From Nitrospiraceae bacterium (GTDB lineage Bacteria > Nitrospirota > Nitrospiria > Nitrospirales > Nitrospiraceae): 64,000 nucleotides of DNA. The number at the start of each line of letters is the position of its first letter. Positions within the stretch are counted from its first letter, which is position 1. The position numbers and the translations under genes were made by a program. The stretch is taken from assembly GCA_050246315.1 (NCBI GenBank), contig JBFWWG010000004.1, positions 192,001 to 256,000 of the forward strand, given 5' to 3'. Under the pieces are notes generated by a model. It made no database searches. It saw nothing but the letters and a program-made list of their open reading frames with translations, and was not told the origin of the DNA. This document shows, piece after piece, positions 6,440-43,117 of this stretch.

Positions 6440-6676
6440 ACAGGATGCTGAAAAAGGTCGCCAGCTTGGTTGGAGCACCCATGGCTGTACTTTCAGGATG
6501 CAATGGGTCTGACGCGAAGCGGCACGACCCTGAAGAGTGTTCTCCAGCGGCATCAATAGAAAGAGGCTTTACCCGATAAACGGTTTTTCCCCCATCCGAC
6601 GCAGGGTGTTGAGATCGTCCGTGATCCCTCGCTGTGCCGACATGCACGGGTACTCGAAGGGTTTTCAACAGCCTCC
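6440..6676. mobile_element. MITE-like element, family B
   Basis: Left end ACAGGATGCTGAAAAAGG; right end TTTTCAACAGCCTCC (rc GGAGGCTGTTGAAAA); a degenerate internal second right end near 6584-6600; no credible coding capacity. Confidence 0.65.
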
Positions 6677-29315: not shown

Positions 29316-29531
29316 ACCCCACCCTCAGTGGACTCCGCGATGAAGCACGTCAGCACTGATCAAGATAAGGACAAAAACCAAGAGGTGACGGTTGTCATAT
29401 ATCGCGGGAAGCTCATCATGTCTATCCTGAAGCCATTGAAATTTTTGTCGAAGACAACCAAGGAACGAATGTCGTGGTTTGTCCGACAACGACGTCGGGT
29501 CGCGTGATCGTGAGGGCGCTCTTGGGGTTCT

Positions 29532-30017
29532 CGCAGGATGTTGAAGAATCCCGCCGGCTTTGTTGAGGCACCCAGTGCAGGCAGTTCATGATGCAAAGGG
29601 TCTCACGCGAAGAGGCTCAACCTTGAAGGGATTTCTTCAGCGGCCTATGAAAATCAGATGAAGGGAAACGCATAGGGTGCTTCTCCGCCGGCGCAGTGAC
29701 GAGAAGCCGATGAAGGGCCGGCGGTTCAAGCGAAGCTTGGTATGGAGGGACTTCGCCCGATGAGCCGCTGGCTCACACATCGTGCGGTAGGTACCGGCCT
29801 CGCCCCTTCGCTGGCTATGGCCCCAACCGTAGAAGGATGTGTCCCGGATGATCGATTGCGAAGCAATCAGAGAGAGGAGGGGTGAGACTCACTCACCGGG
29901 GTTTGGCGGGTGAAGGACGGCTCTTTTGAACATCCTGCGGGCCGTTCCGATCTCATCTGCAATCGTTTGCGGTTCTGTGCTTCTTGGGAGTCCAGAAAGC
30001 TTTTTCGACCGCCTGCT
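29532..30017. mobile_element. MITE-like element, family B, carrying hairpin-module cargo
   Basis: Left CGCAGGATGTTGAAGAA; inner right end TTTTGAACATCCTGCG (ends 29939); outer right end TTTTTCGACCGCCTGCT (ends 30017); module copies at 29631-29792. Confidence 0.7.
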
Positions 30018-30040
30018 CGGCCCGAGGGCGATCGGCGGGA

Positions 30041-30673
30041 CTACTCGGCAACTTGATGCATCAGGGCGTAACGGGTGAGTTCCGCGTTGTTCTTCAATTG
30101 CATCTTGTTCAGGATGCGGGCCCGGTAGGTGCTGACCGTCGTGACGCTCAGATTCAGCGACTCGGCAATTTCCGAGACCGTCCTCCCGGACCCGATCTGG
30201 CGAAGCACCTCAAACTCACGGTCGGACAGCAGCTCATGGGGAGGCCGCCCCTCGCCGGCCTTCATCGTGAGTGCCAACCGCTCGGCCACTTGCGGACTGA
30301 CATATTGCCCGCCGCTTGCGACCTTCTTGATGGCTTGCACCAACTCCTGGGGCGCGCTGGCTTTGTTCAGGTAGCCGTCCGCCCCGGCCTTGTACATGCG
30401 GACGGCATACTGATCTTCCGGATGCATGCTGAGCACGATCACCGGCAGCGCGGGGCGGTCGTGTTTCACCTGCTTCAAAGCCTCGGTCCCCGTGGTCCCG
30501 GGCATGGAAATGTCCATGATCACCACGTCCCATGGCTTTTTCTGCACCAAGTCGGCCAATTCGCGGGCGTCCCCTGCTTCCCCGAATTTCACTGGTCCCA
30601 GCCCCTCCGCAAGCATTTCTTTGACACCCCGTCGAAACAGTGGAAAATCGTCCGCAATTAGAATTTTGTACAT
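30041..30673 (-). CDS. NarL/LuxR-family (UvrY-like) response regulator
   Basis: REC domain (DISMPG, VLSMHPE) and LuxR HTH LSDREFEVL, TVSTYRARILNKM. Confidence 0.93.
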   Translation of the reverse strand: MYKILIADDFPLFRRGVKEMLAEGLGPVKFGEAGDARELADLVQKKPWDVVIMDISMPGTTGTEALKQVKHDRPALPVIVLSMHPEDQYAVRMYKAGADGYLNKASAPQELVQAIKKVASGGQYVSPQVAERLALTMKAGEGRPPHELLSDREFEVLRQIGSGRTVSEIAESLNLSVTTVSTYRARILNKMQLKNNAELTRYALMHQVAE

Positions 30674-30687
30674 GGGTTCCTCGTTTA

Positions 30688-31016
30688 GCCCGCATTATTC
30701 ATGAAGGTTCGTCACGAAACCGCCAAGACGCCACGCGTTGGACCCATTGCATGGGAAGAGCAATGAGTGCCCCCGCGTGGAGACGCAAGGCCCCGAAGCA
30801 CACGTGAAACGGTATGTTGAGGAGACGAGCGGCGAGCCCGCCCGCCATACCGCACTTCGTGTGAACCGGCAACTCATCGGACAAAGTCTCTCTTTATTGT
30901 CGCCGCCGGAGAAATCTCTTCGCCGCCCAGGCTTGTCGCAGCCGTTCGACCCCTTTCTCCGTATTGCAACGGGTCGAACGGCGGTTTCAGTTGAATCGCC
31001 CATTAATATTTCAGGT
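30688..31016. mobile_element. MITE-like element, family A, between kinase and regulator
   Basis: Left TIR GCCCGCATTATTCATGA, degenerate right TIR CCATTAATATTTCAGGT, TA on both flanks, colinear similarity to 59538-59748. Confidence 0.75.
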
Positions 31017-33860: not shown

Positions 33861-34388
33861 TCAGAGTTCCTGTTTCTTGAATTCCGGGAGCATCTTCGCA
33901 GCGGATTCCAACAGGTCCCGCCCGACAAGGATCGGCGCCTTGAAATGCACCGCCAGCGCAATCGAATCGGACGACCGGCTGTCAAACACCTTTTCTACTC
34001 CGTTCACCGCCACCGTCAGGGCTCCATAATAGGTGCCGTCTTTGAGCGTGATCACAGTCCGCAGCACGCGGCCGCCGAACGCTGCCAAAATATTGTGCAT
34101 GAGGTCATGCGACATCGGCCGGGGCAGCTTATCGCCGGTAAGCGCACCGTGAATCGAGCCGGCGACGGTCGCGTCGACAAAAATCGGAATAGCTCGCCCC
34201 TCGGCCAGCAGCAAAACGACCGGACCTTGCTCGGAGACCCGCACCCGCACATCGGTGATTTCGACGAGTTGAGCGGACTCGCCCGACTCCTCAGCCTGCA
34301 CGGCCTGACCAGCCGGCATTCCCGTGACGAGCGACGCGACAAGAGCCGACCACATGAGACCTGTGATTGAGACGGTTGGCCTGTTCAT
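33861..34388 (-). CDS. Bifunctional-nuclease (DUF151) family protein with an N-terminal signal-like sequence
   Basis: IPIFV, PRPMSHDLM, GTYYG, DSRSSDSIALA, API. ATG 34388 follows GGAGG. Confidence 0.85.
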   Translation of the reverse strand: MNRPTVSITGLMWSALVASLVTGMPAGQAVQAEESGESAQLVEITDVRVRVSEQGPVVLLLAEGRAIPIFVDATVAGSIHGALTGDKLPRPMSHDLMHNILAAFGGRVLRTVITLKDGTYYGALTVAVNGVEKVFDSRSSDSIALAVHFKAPILVGRDLLESAAKMLPEFKKQEL

Positions 34389-34576
34389 ACGTCCCCTCCA
34401 TACCAACCTTGGTTGAGCCGGCGGTCCATCGGACGACGCCCCTCTTCATTGTCGCCGCCGGAGAAACACATCCGGTAATCCTTCCCGCTTTTTCTCATAC
34501 CAATCTTGGTTGAGCCGGCGGAGAAGCACCTGATGCGTATTTTCATTCCTCTGTCTTCATCGGCCGACGGAGAGAC
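34389..34576 (-). repeat. Tandem hairpin-module leader (two units)
   Basis: 34389-34466 is highly similar to 41321-41398; the upstream unit 34491-34576 matches 29631-29692 and repeats CCGCCGGCTCAACCAAG.TTGGTATG. Confidence 0.85.
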
Positions 34577-34619
34577 TCGTCAAGCGGCTTTGTTTCTTTT
34601 CACGCTGTGCTCGAACCGA

Positions 34620-40643: not shown

Positions 40644-41243
40644 TCCACCGGTTCTGCCGTTCCTGTCTAGCGATCGCCTGATCCAACCGCCCAGAGTGAG
40701 TGTCAAAAACGATCGCTTGCATAGGTCTGTAATGCCCAAAATCACCCCTATCTAAAGACCCTATACCGTGACAACCGGCTCTAATTGTCACGCGCAGCGC
40801 CTTATGGTAGAGACACGGCGTGACGGAGATGGCAGTCACGATCGCCTCATCCGTTCATCCATCATGGCCGAACACCGCCCTTTCCAACGAGTGTGGAAAC
40901 CTTCGTTTATCCTGTCATCATAATACGTAGAACCGCGCGCCCGCTTGCGATGTCATTCACAATGTCCTAGGGAGAGATGCGTTCGTGCATTAACTCGGCT
41001 ACCCACGAAAGGGATTCCCTGCACCTCGACCGTTTCCTCTTCATCCACAAGGGGCCGACTGGTTTTCCGACATGCTGCCTCGTTGGCTGTTCGTACGATT
41101 CCCGATGATAAGAGGGGCCCAGTTGTCGCAGCGCATCTGAAGGAGCCGGCAATGGAAGCGCGTAAGAGAAACCCGCCGGCGGCATTTCTCCTGCAGTGGA
41201 GTGACGCCGACTAAGAATCAGTCTGACCAAACGGGTGAAAGGC

Positions 41244-41398
41244 AAGAAGGGCGTCGCCCGATGAACCGCCGGCTCTAGCAAAGCTTGGTATGGCGAGGGG
41301 GAAGGGAATCACGAACGGGGTTTCTCCGGCGGCGTCAATGAAGAAGGGCGTCGCCCGATGAGCCGCCGGCTCTAGCAAAGCTTGGTATGGAGGGGGGC
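41244..41398 (+). repeat. Tandem hairpin-module leader; 50-nt direct repeat, period 97
   Basis: 41244-41293 and 41341-41390 are identical at 49 of 50 positions; the second ends in GGAGG just before ATG 41399. Confidence 0.9.
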
Positions 41399-43117
41399 AT
41401 GGAACGTCGAACGGATCGCAGCCGTACTGTTTGCGCGTTGATGGCCACCGTCGCATGCGGCCTGGTGATGGGCTGTTCGGGTGGCGGCGACGGAGGATCA
41501 AGTGGAGCAAGTGCCGGGGGGGGGATTGCGTCTCCGACGAATTCAATCACCACGACCTCGCTCCCGGTGGGAGATGAAACACAGCCTTACTCTGCCACGC
41601 TGACCGCCTCGGGAACAGGGCCATTGACCTGGACCCTGGGCGGTACGCTGCCGCAGGGGCTCACGTTCAATGCCGCGGCCGGCACGATCGCGGGCACGCC
41701 CACCACGCCTACCTCCGTGCCGCTCTCCGTCAAAGTGACCGCACCGAACTGGAGTGATGCGAAGGACTATATGTTGACCATACGCTCCAAGACACACCGT
41801 GTCTCCGTCGTAACTGAGACGTTGGCCGAGAGCAATGGAGGCAGCGGCGACGGGACCAGGCTCACCAACGGTGTGCTCCTCGAGCGCAGTTTCGATCCAG
41901 CCATGAGCGGAACCGGGCGGTTCATAGTCTTCGATTCAGCTGCCACCAACTTGGTTCCCGGAGTGCTCGCGAACGGTAGGCGGCAGATCTACCTGCACGA
42001 CCGCGAGACCGGCATCACAGAGCTGATCTCGGTCGGTCCGGGGAAGGTCCCGGGCGACGACGATAGTTTCGTGGCCGCGGTCAGCGATGACGGGCAATTG
42101 GTCGCCTTCGACTCATTTGCCACCAACCTGATTGCCGGCGACACAAACGGCGCGCGGGATGTTTTCCTCCGCAATCGTGCCTCCGGCGTCACGGAACGAA
42201 TCTCACAAGGGGTCCAAGGCGCGCAGGGCATCTGTCCGAACTCGGGCGAGGGTTGCAACAGTTTTGACCCGGCGATGAGCGCGGATGGGAAGGTCATCGC
42301 CTTCGGCAGTTACGCGCGGTTGGTCCAGGACGACACCGACGACGGGACCGATATCTACGTCCTGGATCGGCGGGGTGCGCCGGTCTTGCGGCGGATTTCG
42401 GCCGGCCTCGGAGGAGCCCAGGCGAATATTCTCAACGGGAGCCCGGCGGTCAGCGCGGACGGCCAATTCGTCGCCTTTGCATCCAACGCGAGCAACCTCC
42501 TCGCTGGCGACTCGGCCGATATCATGACCGACATTTTCCGGTTCAGCCTGCAGACCGGCTCCTTGCGGAAGGTTTCCGTTCCGTCCGGCGGCGGGGCGCC
42601 GAATGGTGACAGTTTCGGCCCCTCGCTGAGCGGCGACGGGAGGTATGTGGCCTTCTGGTCACGCGCAGGCAACCTCCCGGCTGGACCGACGGATAGCGAC
42701 AGTATTGCCGATGTTTTTGTGGCGGATCTCCAGGGAGTACCCCCCTTAATCGTCAAACTGTCTGTCAATCTCAATTTGGTGTCCGGCAACGGAGACAGCC
42801 GGTACCCCTCAATCAGCCGAGACGGCCGTCTGGTGGCCTACGATTCCCTGGCCACCAATCTCGATCTTCTCACAAGCGATCTGAACGGTGTGCGGGATAT
42901 CCTCGTCATCGACCGCAGTTGTCTCTTTGACGCCACCTTCCCCTGCCTAGTGAAACGGGTGTCCGTCCACGGAAACGGCGGAGAATCAAATGGCGAGAGC
43001 CGTTTTCCGGCTATCAGCGGCGACGGCCGGTTCGTGGTGTACTATTCCGACGGATCGAGTCTCGTCGATGGGGATACGAACGGCGCAAGGGATGCGTTCG
43101 TCAGCCGGCGACCATAG
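41399..43117 (+). CDS. Lipoprotein with an Ig-like domain and TolB-like beta-propeller repeats
   Basis: Lipobox VMGC, Gly/Ser linker, LPQGLTF...GTIAGTPT, repeated S.DGR.VAF.S.A.NL and DTNGARDVF. Confidence 0.85.
   Translation: MERRTDRSRTVCALMATVACGLVMGCSGGGDGGSSGASAGGGIASPTNSITTTSLPVGDETQPYSATLTASGTGPLTWTLGGTLPQGLTFNAAAGTIAGTPTTPTSVPLSVKVTAPNWSDAKDYMLTIRSKTHRVSVVTETLAESNGGSGDGTRLTNGVLLERSFDPAMSGTGRFIVFDSAATNLVPGVLANGRRQIYLHDRETGITELISVGPGKVPGDDDSFVAAVSDDGQLVAFDSFATNLIAGDTNGARDVFLRNRASGVTERISQGVQGAQGICPNSGEGCNSFDPAMSADGKVIAFGSYARLVQDDTDDGTDIYVLDRRGAPVLRRISAGLGGAQANILNGSPAVSADGQFVAFASNASNLLAGDSADIMTDIFRFSLQTGSLRKVSVPSGGGAPNGDSFGPSLSGDGRYVAFWSRAGNLPAGPTDSDSIADVFVADLQGVPPLIVKLSVNLNLVSGNGDSRYPSISRDGRLVAYDSLATNLDLLTSDLNGVRDILVIDRSCLFDATFPCLVKRVSVHGNGGESNGESRFPAISGDGRFVVYYSDGSSLVDGDTNGARDAFVSRRP

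Follow-up and report, generated by a model that had tools for sequence, protein, structure and literature searches.

A structured, previously undescribed intergenic repeat family of Nitrospira that supplies Shine-Dalgarno sequences to unrelated genes

The window analyzed here is a 64,000-nt stretch (positions 192,001–256,000) of contig JBFWWG010000004.1 from a Nitrospiraceae bacterium (assembly GCA_050246315.1). A gene for a He_PIG/PD40 protein starts at position 41399 of its plus strand and a gene for a BFN-domain protein at position 34388 of its minus strand, and the leaders of both genes end in the same multi-hairpin module, whose 3′ end contains the Shine-Dalgarno (SD) sequence 5–6 nt before the ATG. 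A first-pass annotation of the window, which had placed the SD sequence correctly, described the module as a 78-nt gene leader and proposed either a translational switch or a mobile hairpin domesticated as a ribosome-binding-site (RBS) cassette. We find that the module is real and structured and that it belongs to a repeat family not described before; it is probably a single unit of a modular, structured repeat that lies between genes and is specific to the Nitrospiraceae clade.

The repeat unit and its genome-wide family

The two leaders are composed of the following features, in which P1, P2, and P3 denote the helices of a unit.

41321–41393, plus strand: full type-A unit (nhmmer match 41321–41392, and structure alignment)
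41321–41327, plus strand: UUUCUCC of this unit
41326–41333 pairing with 41362–41369, plus strand: P1 of this unit
41346–41349 pairing with 41353–41356, plus strand: P2 of this unit
41372–41376 pairing with 41380–41384, plus strand: P3 of this unit
41384–41390, plus strand: terminal GGTATGG of this unit
41389–41393, plus strand: GGAGG of this unit, the SD sequence of the 572-residue He_PIG/PD40 protein gene (ATG at 41399)
41243–41294, plus strand: half unit (model positions 20–71: P2, 3′ strand of P1, P3, and GGTATGG) that lacks the 5′ strand of P1
41295–41320, plus strand: purine-rich linker between the two units, with an AATCAC..GG motif
34396–34466, minus strand: full type-A unit, with TGGAGG at 34400–34395 (GGAGG at 34399–34395) as the SD sequence of the BFN-domain gene (ATG at 34388)
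about 34494–34576, minus strand: degenerate upstream unit with an internal deletion, in which P3 follows immediately on the 5′ strand of P1 (weak nhmmer match, E = 0.0018)

The window lies in a 4,385,457-bp Nitrospira assembly of 30 contigs, called G000 here. Iterated nhmmer searches of G000, seeded with the 78-nt unit and cut off at E ≤ 0.01, returned 148 matches (104 full length, 23 half units beginning with the inner hairpin, and 21 other partials), which form 93 same-strand arrays of one to six units. The copies that had been reported at 41321, 34389, and 30841, together with the partial units, all exist, and the tandem layout seen in the window is general: neighboring units no more than 300 nt apart lie on the same strand in 56 of 56 pairs, with none opposite, at a period of 83–104 nt. 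The leader described at first pass thus stands as a structured module, but it is not specific to a locus, being a repeat of about 95 nt, counting its purine-rich 5′ linker, with matches throughout the genome. By the ad hoc scorer of open reading frames (ORFs) on which all gene contexts rest (3905 calls, 84% coding), 90 of the 93 arrays are intergenic, and the three "inside" cases look like over-long ORF calls.

From 5′ to 3′, a unit comprises the purine-rich linker with a GGAGG-like motif, UUUCUCC, the 8-bp GC stem P1, the stem P3, and a terminal GGTNTGG, and most units are preceded by the AATCAC..GG motif. The interior of P1 holds either the small hairpin P2 (type A, 70 of 102 distinct full units in G000) or an A-rich loop (type B, 32 units); the inner hairpin of the first-pass description is therefore a feature of type-A units that type-B units lack.

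The three helices are supported by compensatory changes. Across the 102 units, P1 has 37 different 5′ strands, pairs at all eight positions in 68 units, and averages 7.49 pairs, compared with 6.45 ± 0.07 when the 3′ strands are shuffled among units. Individual columns switch pair type, as in P1 (55 GC, 26 CG, and 4 TA), P3 (37 GC, 33 AT, and 22 CG), and P2 (42 GC and 18 AT). An alignment of 21 type-A units from four genomes has 93.3% of its cells paired versus 82.6 ± 1.2% in shuffles and a covariation score of 0.311 versus 0.125, values that 0 of 500 shuffles reach in either case; slid-partner controls pair at 20–43%, and RNAalifold independently predicts P1, P2, and P3. The shuffle control overstates independence, because the 21 rows mix paralogues and orthologues. 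P3 is a C(GNA)G mini-hairpin, with the loop GAA in 67 of the 102 units and a C-G closing pair in 94. Thermodynamic stability was rejected as a line of support: single units scored against dinucleotide shuffles gave z values of −0.64, −1.30, +0.09, and +0.81. As single sequences are no more stable than their shuffles, the structural support comes from covariation and not from energy. The unit does not have the layout of an intrinsic terminator, since P1 is followed by CUC or UUC in the sense orientation and by AGAAAC in antisense, with no U tract. A hammerhead-like reading of a CUGANGA box was discarded, there being no Rfam ribozyme match at E ≤ 10 and an unfitting order of helices.

Outside G000, the unit was found by BLAST in 11 of 31 related genomes (G000 included), of which three are the three other members of its genus, G001–G003, and seven belong to other genera; 13 of the 21 genera sampled gave no BLAST match. 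The 31-genome tallies here and below take in one genome flagged as unpublished, G009, on which no specific claim rests. A covariance model built from the 21 type-A units (E ≤ 0.001, up to 150 candidates scored per genome) matched at least 133 sites in G001 and at least 63, 18, and 20 in G007, G004, and G016, respectively, which represent three other Nitrospiraceae genera. Exact-pattern matches in public species genomes fell in Nitrospiraceae or Nitrospira records, plus one Steroidobacteraceae contig of a metagenome-assembled genome (JBEKUL010000019.1, gammaproteobacterial bin), where a 23-nt unit pattern is matched exactly and mis-binning or transfer is possible. Scans of viral contigs, plasmids, and phages gave 0 matches each, and a carrier phage or plasmid was rejected.

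No described family accounts for the module, as had been anticipated. Rfam release 15 at the gathering threshold found two tRNAs in the whole window and nothing for the module, positions 41150–41450 had 0 matches at E ≤ 10, and positions 29560–31000 had chance-level matches only (E from 0.4 to 2.7). Our search of the literature on Nitrospira repeats, on MITEs (miniature inverted-repeat transposable elements), and on the association of repeats with SD sequences or tRNAs returned no description of the family.

Junctions with start codons and the question of a switch

The 3′ end of the repeat, GGTATGG, almost always adjoins a boundary. By what lies beyond it, the 93 arrays fall into 28 that meet an SD sequence and start codon, 16 that meet the 3′ end of a tRNA or transfer-messenger RNA (tmRNA) type gene on the opposite strand, one at the 5′ end of a tRNA-Ser, 23 and 19 inside two MITE families termed c3 and c4, and six other or partial cases. 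Random placement relative to start codons, which the first-pass annotation had named as a sign against its proposal, is not what these classes show.

The SD sequence of the module genes is element-borne. GGAGG is present in 24 of the 28 arrays of the first class, ending 4–8 nt before the ATG or GTG of an ORF of at least 67 residues, and in 260 of 2359 well-scoring control genes searched at −22 to −4. It is preceded by T in 23 of 24 module genes versus 35 of 260 controls and followed by G in 13 of 24 versus 54 of 260 (Fisher p = 7e-4), and, within arrays, GGTAT(G/A)GAGGGG also joins a type-B unit to a half type-A unit. Of the 284 perfect GGAGG ribosome-binding sites scored in G000, 24 (about 1 in 12) derive from the repeat, and the family thus shapes translation signals and 5′ untranslated regions (5′ UTRs) genome-wide. 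Orthologues in genera without the unit already carry GGAGG-type SD sequences at an equal distance, so the unit may have merged with an existing SD sequence through the shared GGAGG. The start codons of the module genes lie outside the repeat.

The 28 genes are unrelated to one another, as the first-pass annotation had said of the proteins in the window: by their N termini they include flgC-like, leuA-like, and L25/Ctc-like genes, along with LemA-like proteins and lipoproteins, and Pfam identifies among them the BFN-domain protein and the He_PIG/PD40 protein. The ATG inside GGTATGG is a trap for annotation, in that the mechanical ORF list opens a 576-residue ORF at 41387 where the SD spacing favors 41399, and such false starts recur at other module genes. 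No conserved mini-ORF was seen in the units on inspection of the alignments, and a small ORF with translational coupling was rejected.

At leuA, at least, the unit is transcribed as part of a 5′ UTR. In G001, a T-box (locus L041, 1134–1365; E = 2.7e-19) is followed by a terminator, a unit at 1422–1493, and the leuA ATG at 1501. The T-box has no match at the Rfam gathering threshold (86.1 bits versus 93) and appears when an E-value threshold is used. All four species of the genus show this layout (in G000 at locus L035, contig C7); in G004 and G007 other repeats fill the space between the T-box terminator and leuA. Because it sits between the T-box terminator and leuA, the unit lies inside a regulated 5′ UTR and is read through in the sense orientation. 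The promoter must precede the T-box, which places the transcription start upstream of the unit and not downstream of it, the arrangement that would have spoken against a leader. In metatranscriptome libraries of four studies, contigs begin at 41341 and 41362, within the 41321 unit, and continue into the ORF, and a 3.6-kb contig spans gene, array, and gene at 34443–34582, with 116 letters in place of 138. Their support is weak, because contigs cannot show RNA ends and carry-over of DNA is possible; the public RNA data consist of contigs, in which starts, ends, and strand are unreadable and uncovered parts are uninformative.

The translational switch of the first-pass annotation, in which the 5′ UUUCUCC of the last unit would pair with the GGAGG SD sequence in competition with P1 and under the control of a signal, is very unlikely. 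The location of a unit in the leuA 5′ UTR would suit it, UUUCUCC and GGAGG are both nearly invariant, and the minimum-free-energy (MFE) fold of the 34389–34466 unit pairs UUUCUCCG with the SD region. However, the predicted unpaired probability of the SD sequence (partition function) is 0.38 for the 28 module genes and 0.35 for 234 GGAGG controls (Mann-Whitney p = 0.27), UUUCUCC pairs with the upstream purine linker in most MFE folds, and it is conserved to the same degree in units without an SD sequence, both those beside tRNAs and those borne by MITEs. The downstream genes are unrelated, and variation in the SD and anti-SD segments is too scarce to judge covariation by. Although feasible, an anti-SD switch finds no support. 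Riboswitch-type leaders stand before functionally related genes and in the sense orientation only; the module shares with them a transcribed 5′ UTR, at leuA, but neither related genes nor a sense-only orientation. As its units sit before unrelated genes, behind tRNA genes, and inside MITEs, the module is not a gene-specific RNA switch. The proposal of a dedicated cis-regulatory element is not supported on these grounds, counting the 16 antisense tRNA/tmRNA arrays, the 42 MITE arrays, and the swapping of units between close species; the other half of the proposal, the domesticated RBS cassette, comes close to the reading that we favor.

We also considered the array as a platform for a global RNA-binding protein, either CsrA, bound to GGA motifs, or a protein of the L7Ae type, bound to the GA-rich internal loop, and hold this to be extremely unlikely. 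Each unit has two GGA motifs (CUGGAGG and AUGGAGG), one of which overlaps the SD sequence, tandem G-A pairs (GAAGA/GAUGA) are possible in the type-A loop, CsrA is encoded in all four genomes of the genus, and flgC is among the targets. Yet L7Ae (PF01248) is found in 0 of 31 genomes, in a search to which control genomes responded, and CsrA, found in 11 of 31 genomes, is distributed unlike the repeat: it was not found in G007 or G004, with their at least 63 and 18 model matches, and the repeat has no BLAST match in five genomes that do encode CsrA. A CsrA sponge or leader was rejected because the distribution of CsrA does not track the repeat, and a K-turn/L7Ae ribonucleoprotein, suggested by the box C/D-like GAAGA/GAUGA loop and a chance sR49 match (E = 2.7), was rejected with the 0 of 31 count for L7Ae.

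Junctions with tRNA ends and MITEs

The 16 opposite-strand arrays adjoin 13 of the 46 tRNAs called by ARAGORN, the tmRNA, and two tRNA-like 3′ halves recognized by eye. The junction reads exactly CCA|TACC at 11 of the 13 tRNAs, so the TGG of the unit is the complement of the encoded CCA, which is present in 45 of the 46 ARAGORN calls. One more array adjoins the 5′ end of tRNA-Ser(tga), a gene that starts with GGAGGGG, and this junction is also seen in G001. The two tRNA-like halves, which ARAGORN missed, adjoin arrays at G000:C11:161735–162065 (four units) and C2:515475–515734 (three units); they consist of a T-arm, acceptor, and CCA complement, one lies at a contig end, and they may be unusual or broken tRNA genes. 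By eye, tRNA-Arg(ccg) has a further decayed copy below the nhmmer threshold. In G007 (contig C13), a second copy of the last 12 nt of tRNA-Thr(tgt) lies about 190 nt downstream of that tRNA and is followed by a unit, which looks like the scar of an insertion that displaced the old 3′ end together with its unit. Integrated islands at tRNAs were rejected, as ordinary genes lie beyond the 16 tRNA-side arrays, with no integrase seen among them by first residues.

The same junctions occur in other genomes. Among 34 unique arrays taken from the 30 best-scoring loci of G001, G004, G007, and G016, 17 meet an SD sequence and start codon, 6 an ARAGORN tRNA or tmRNA 3′ end, 3 a tRNA-like 3′ end recognized by eye, and 1 a tRNA-Ser 5′ end; 2 are c3-type, and 5 are partial, masked, or other. 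The variable position of GGTNTGG is T at the tRNA-type ends of G004 and several G016 junctions and C at the two tRNA ends in G007. Because both the SD and the tRNA junctions recur in other genera, they are intrinsic to the family.

The remaining large classes are nested in MITEs, and the window contains one example of each, flanking a gene for a LuxR-type response regulator, together with a further partial unit.

30843–30914, minus strand: full type-A unit nested in the c3 MITE and followed by its right half
30685–30842, minus strand: right half of the c3-type MITE, terminal inverted repeat at 30685–30704, stopping 12 nt before the ATG (30673) of the LuxR-type response regulator gene
29681–29747, plus strand: type-B unit, fused to a half type-A unit, in the c4 MITE
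29745–29790, plus strand: the half type-A unit fused to the type-B unit, in the c4 MITE
29530–30019, plus strand: c4-type MITE holding the 29681–29790 units, inverted-repeat ends at 29530–29543 and 30006–30019
6540–6581, plus strand: partial unit (model positions 2–43; nhmmer E = 5.7e-4)

The c3 sequence is the right half of an element of about 370–430 nt with 20-nt inverted ends at CTAG, and c4 is another element of this kind. Of the c3 arrays, 19 of 23 showed one or both end motifs and 11 showed both; for the c4 arrays, the numbers were 13 of 19 and 6. Since 23 c3 arrays and 19 c4 arrays are nested, 42 of the 93 arrays are cargo of two MITE families. MITE copies free of the unit exist: c3 has 130 nhmmer matches in G000, of which 89 reach the 5′ end and 20 are preceded by a unit, and c4 has 86, of which 58 have the 5′ end and 19 are preceded by a unit; copies without a unit hold a different hairpin at the same place. 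The module itself has no MITE hallmarks, its ends (UUUCUCC... and ...GGTATGG) not being inverted complements. The inverted ends of c3 at CTAG read CTAGCCCRCATTATTCATGA..., and the right end, which often halts a few nucleotides before a start codon, holds a TGAATAAT stretch resembling a −10 box, such that c3 may be a portable promoter. The c4 element of the window is about 490 nt long, with ends CTAGCAGGATGTTG...CAACAGCCTGCTAG, and c4 mostly lies after the 3′ ends of convergent genes. CTAG and TA targets are linked to the IS630 family; an IS630-type transposase was rejected as the partner of c3 and c4, as neither of two DDE_3 matches has a MITE end near it.

The four contexts allow a strand test, on the logic that stems selected as RNA should tolerate G-U on the transcribed strand only. 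Counts of G-U versus A-C mismatches were 15 versus 9 in the SD class, 14 versus 12 in the tRNA class, 8 versus 16 in c3, and 12 versus 20 in c4, with a Watson-Crick share in P1 of about 87–92% in every context, and no context-specific strand bias was found in any of the four. The lack of bias fits maintenance at the DNA level or use in both orientations.

Use in both orientations is what would be expected of an element of RNA processing or stability, in which a double-strand-specific or 5′-end-dependent RNase cuts the P1-P2 helix, trimming tRNA 3′ trailers and leaving a short, stabilizing P3 hairpin plus SD sequence at the mRNA 5′ end. Correia and ERIC repeats are reported RNase targets. In the module, the helices are Watson-Crick on both strands without bias, so that the RNA folds in either orientation, and the edge of the unit coincides exactly with RNA boundaries, namely those at tRNA 3′ ends, a single tRNA 5′ end, and SD sequences. 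A stable hairpin 3 nt after CCA should, however, hinder exonucleolytic tRNA trimming, and the 42 MITE-borne arrays need no such role; we consider this explanation unlikely.

Equal conservation on both strands would also suit a REP- or PATE-like single-strand DNA element that is mobilized in trans by an HUH (Y1) transposase able to recognize its hairpins and inserts beside CCA/TGG. Most units have a GNA loop in P3 with a closing C-G pair, which is a very stable mini-hairpin in DNA, TGG is present at every junction, and G000 has eight PF01797 matches, four of them intact. Set against this, no Y1 gene is flanked by a unit or a piece of one, even at E ≤ 10, inverted unit pairs number 0 of 56, no conserved GTAG-type tetranucleotide is present, and no clean insertion polymorphism was seen, and mobilization of this kind appears quite unlikely. 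A RAYT or IS200 partner was rejected, none being adjacent to units. The intact genes encode RAYT-like Y1 proteins of about 300–320 residues (G000:C20:15809–16744, C4:264712–265620, C4:301843–302808, and C1:568960–569901), and the other four matches are shorter or broken. Nothing in the flanks of the four intact genes is both repeated and module-like; to the left of the C4:301843 copy lies another repeat, of about 25 copies.

A further proposal makes the unit a self-propagating, non-autonomous cassette that homes, through a dedicated enzyme or an RNA- or 3′-end-templated process, to TGG or GGAGG at the edges of functional RNAs, which would be the CCA ends of tRNAs and tmRNA, a tRNA 5′ end, and SD sequences. 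We regard it as improbable; if true, a structured leader with a consensus SD sequence would rewire translation initiation of dozens of genes in several genera.

Turnover at orthologous loci and relation to known repeats

Orthologous loci differ in the units that they carry. At the BFN-domain gene, the four genus members have as their last unit A, B plus half-A, A, and B, respectively; G007 has a type-B unit visible by eye (without an nhmmer match), and no unit was found at the other nine loci of this gene that were examined. Ribosomal protein L25 is preceded by a unit in G000, G002, and G003, by a decayed relic in G001, and by none in G004 and G007. At tRNA-Thr(cgt), G000 and G002 have two units each, G001 has at least four, and G003, G004, and G007 have none; at tRNA-Thr(tgt) there is one unit in G000, a truncated one in G001, and none beside the tRNA in G003, G004, and G007. 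Between G000 and its closest species, G002, identity in the 90 nt before the ATG falls below that of four-fold sites at three of the four loci compared (0.87/0.92, 0.71/0.89, and 0.86/0.95), and toward more distant species it plateaus near the family resemblance, at 0.62–0.89. The comparison describes a repeat whose units appear to be exchanged and not a fixed regulatory RNA, with leuA as a possible exception.

The account we favor, and hold to be more probable than its rivals taken together, is a structured intergenic repeat that spreads as DNA and serves as a portable leader with a strong SD sequence. Spread would proceed through tandem gain, loss, and exchange of units, through passage inside the two CTAG-flanked MITE families, and through capture at G-rich boundaries having TGG or GGAGG in common with the 3′ end of the unit. 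When a start codon follows the end of an array, the terminal TGGAGG(G) is the SD sequence of that gene, and the array would be transcribed as a 5′ UTR, acting as a generic strong-RBS leader and not as a sensing switch. We infer the DNA-level spread, the role of microhomology, and any benefit for expression from these patterns, and we tentatively attribute the fusion of the repeat end to SD sequences and CCA ends to the shared TGG/GGAGG.

Several observations pull the other way. No terminal inverted repeats, target duplication, or transposase were found for the module itself, and a clean pair of empty and filled sites was not recovered: the "empty" L25 site of G001 holds the degenerate relic, and the tRNA-Thr loci of G003, G004, and G007 are rearranged. 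The recurrence of the CCA/SD fusion in four genera could reflect a dedicated function or enzyme and not microhomology. Units are kept at leuA, flgC, and the BFN-domain gene in all four species of the genus, and at leuA the 90 nt before the ATG are 0.95 identical in G002 versus 0.87 at four-fold sites, a conservation compatible with selection at the RNA level. The context counts, finally, depend on the ad hoc ORF scorer.

By analogy, the module is most like the REP2 repeat of Neisseria or the pneumococcal BOX element, and REP2 appears to be the closest functional precedent. The passages on REP2 in Delihas (2011; PMC3184786) describe elements of 120–150 bp in about 26 copies, with two internal stem-loops and no terminal inverted repeats, that carry a promoter, RBS, and ATG immediately upstream of ORFs. 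The module resembles REP2, and the Borrelia IR-A/IR-B repeats in the same passages, in being intergenic, in its internal stem-loops, and in forming part of the 5′ UTR and the RBS of many unrelated ORFs (28 arrays end in an RBS at a working distance from an ORF start), a likeness by description rather than by comparison of sequences. In contrast to REP2, which those passages do not describe as tandem, behind tRNAs, or nested in MITEs, the module forms arrays of one to six units, over half of them in other contexts, and it ends at the SD sequence, with the promoter upstream in at least one case (the T-box before the unit).

The comparison with BOX, in which subunits are ordered boxA-boxB(n)-boxC, rests on modularity, a variable number of subunits, a predicted RNA fold, and location in transcribed intergenic regions; BOX belongs to a different phylum and is without reported fusion to SD sequences or tRNA ends. 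REP and BIME elements are likewise short, GC-rich intergenic hairpins, often between co-directional genes, with stems kept across copies, but they are about 35 nt long, form inverted pairs, and flank a RAYT gene, whereas the module is about 95 nt long with three helices, is arranged in direct repeats in 56 of 56 pairs, and has no unit flanking a Y1 gene. Mycobacterial MIRU elements are direct tandem repeats of 46–101 bp in operons and beside start codons, a layout that the module shares, and contain small ORFs overlapping the stop and start codons on either side. The ATG of GGTATGG, unlike these small ORFs, opens a listed long ORF at only 8 of the 28 SD-class junctions, which, if it means in frame with the gene, is near the chance value of one in three. 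With MITEs such as Correia and ERIC, some of which lie in 5′ UTRs and alter expression, the module shares abundance, non-coding structure, and restriction to a clade; it differs in having no terminal inverted repeats or visible target duplication and in riding inside two true MITE families.

Nitrospira are key nitrite oxidizers in wastewater treatment and soils, and almost none of their gene regulation, which is difficult to study, has been charted; flgC, leuA, and ribosomal protein L25 are among the genes to which the repeat supplies an SD sequence. That one repeat end is fused exactly to both SD sequences and tRNA CCA ends, a feature conserved across genera, points to an insertion mechanism and is the part of the finding most worth following; the sources reached by our literature search describe such a fusion, in the parts available, for no repeat family. 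In annotation terms, many "structured leaders" can be traced to the family, as can spurious ORF starts like the ATG at 41387 and many breaks in assemblies and transcript contigs. Between 29681 and 42600 of the window, contigs break or misjoin at units, as in a joint from 41344 to 29722, which makes the repeat a practical cause of fragmented Nitrospira assemblies.

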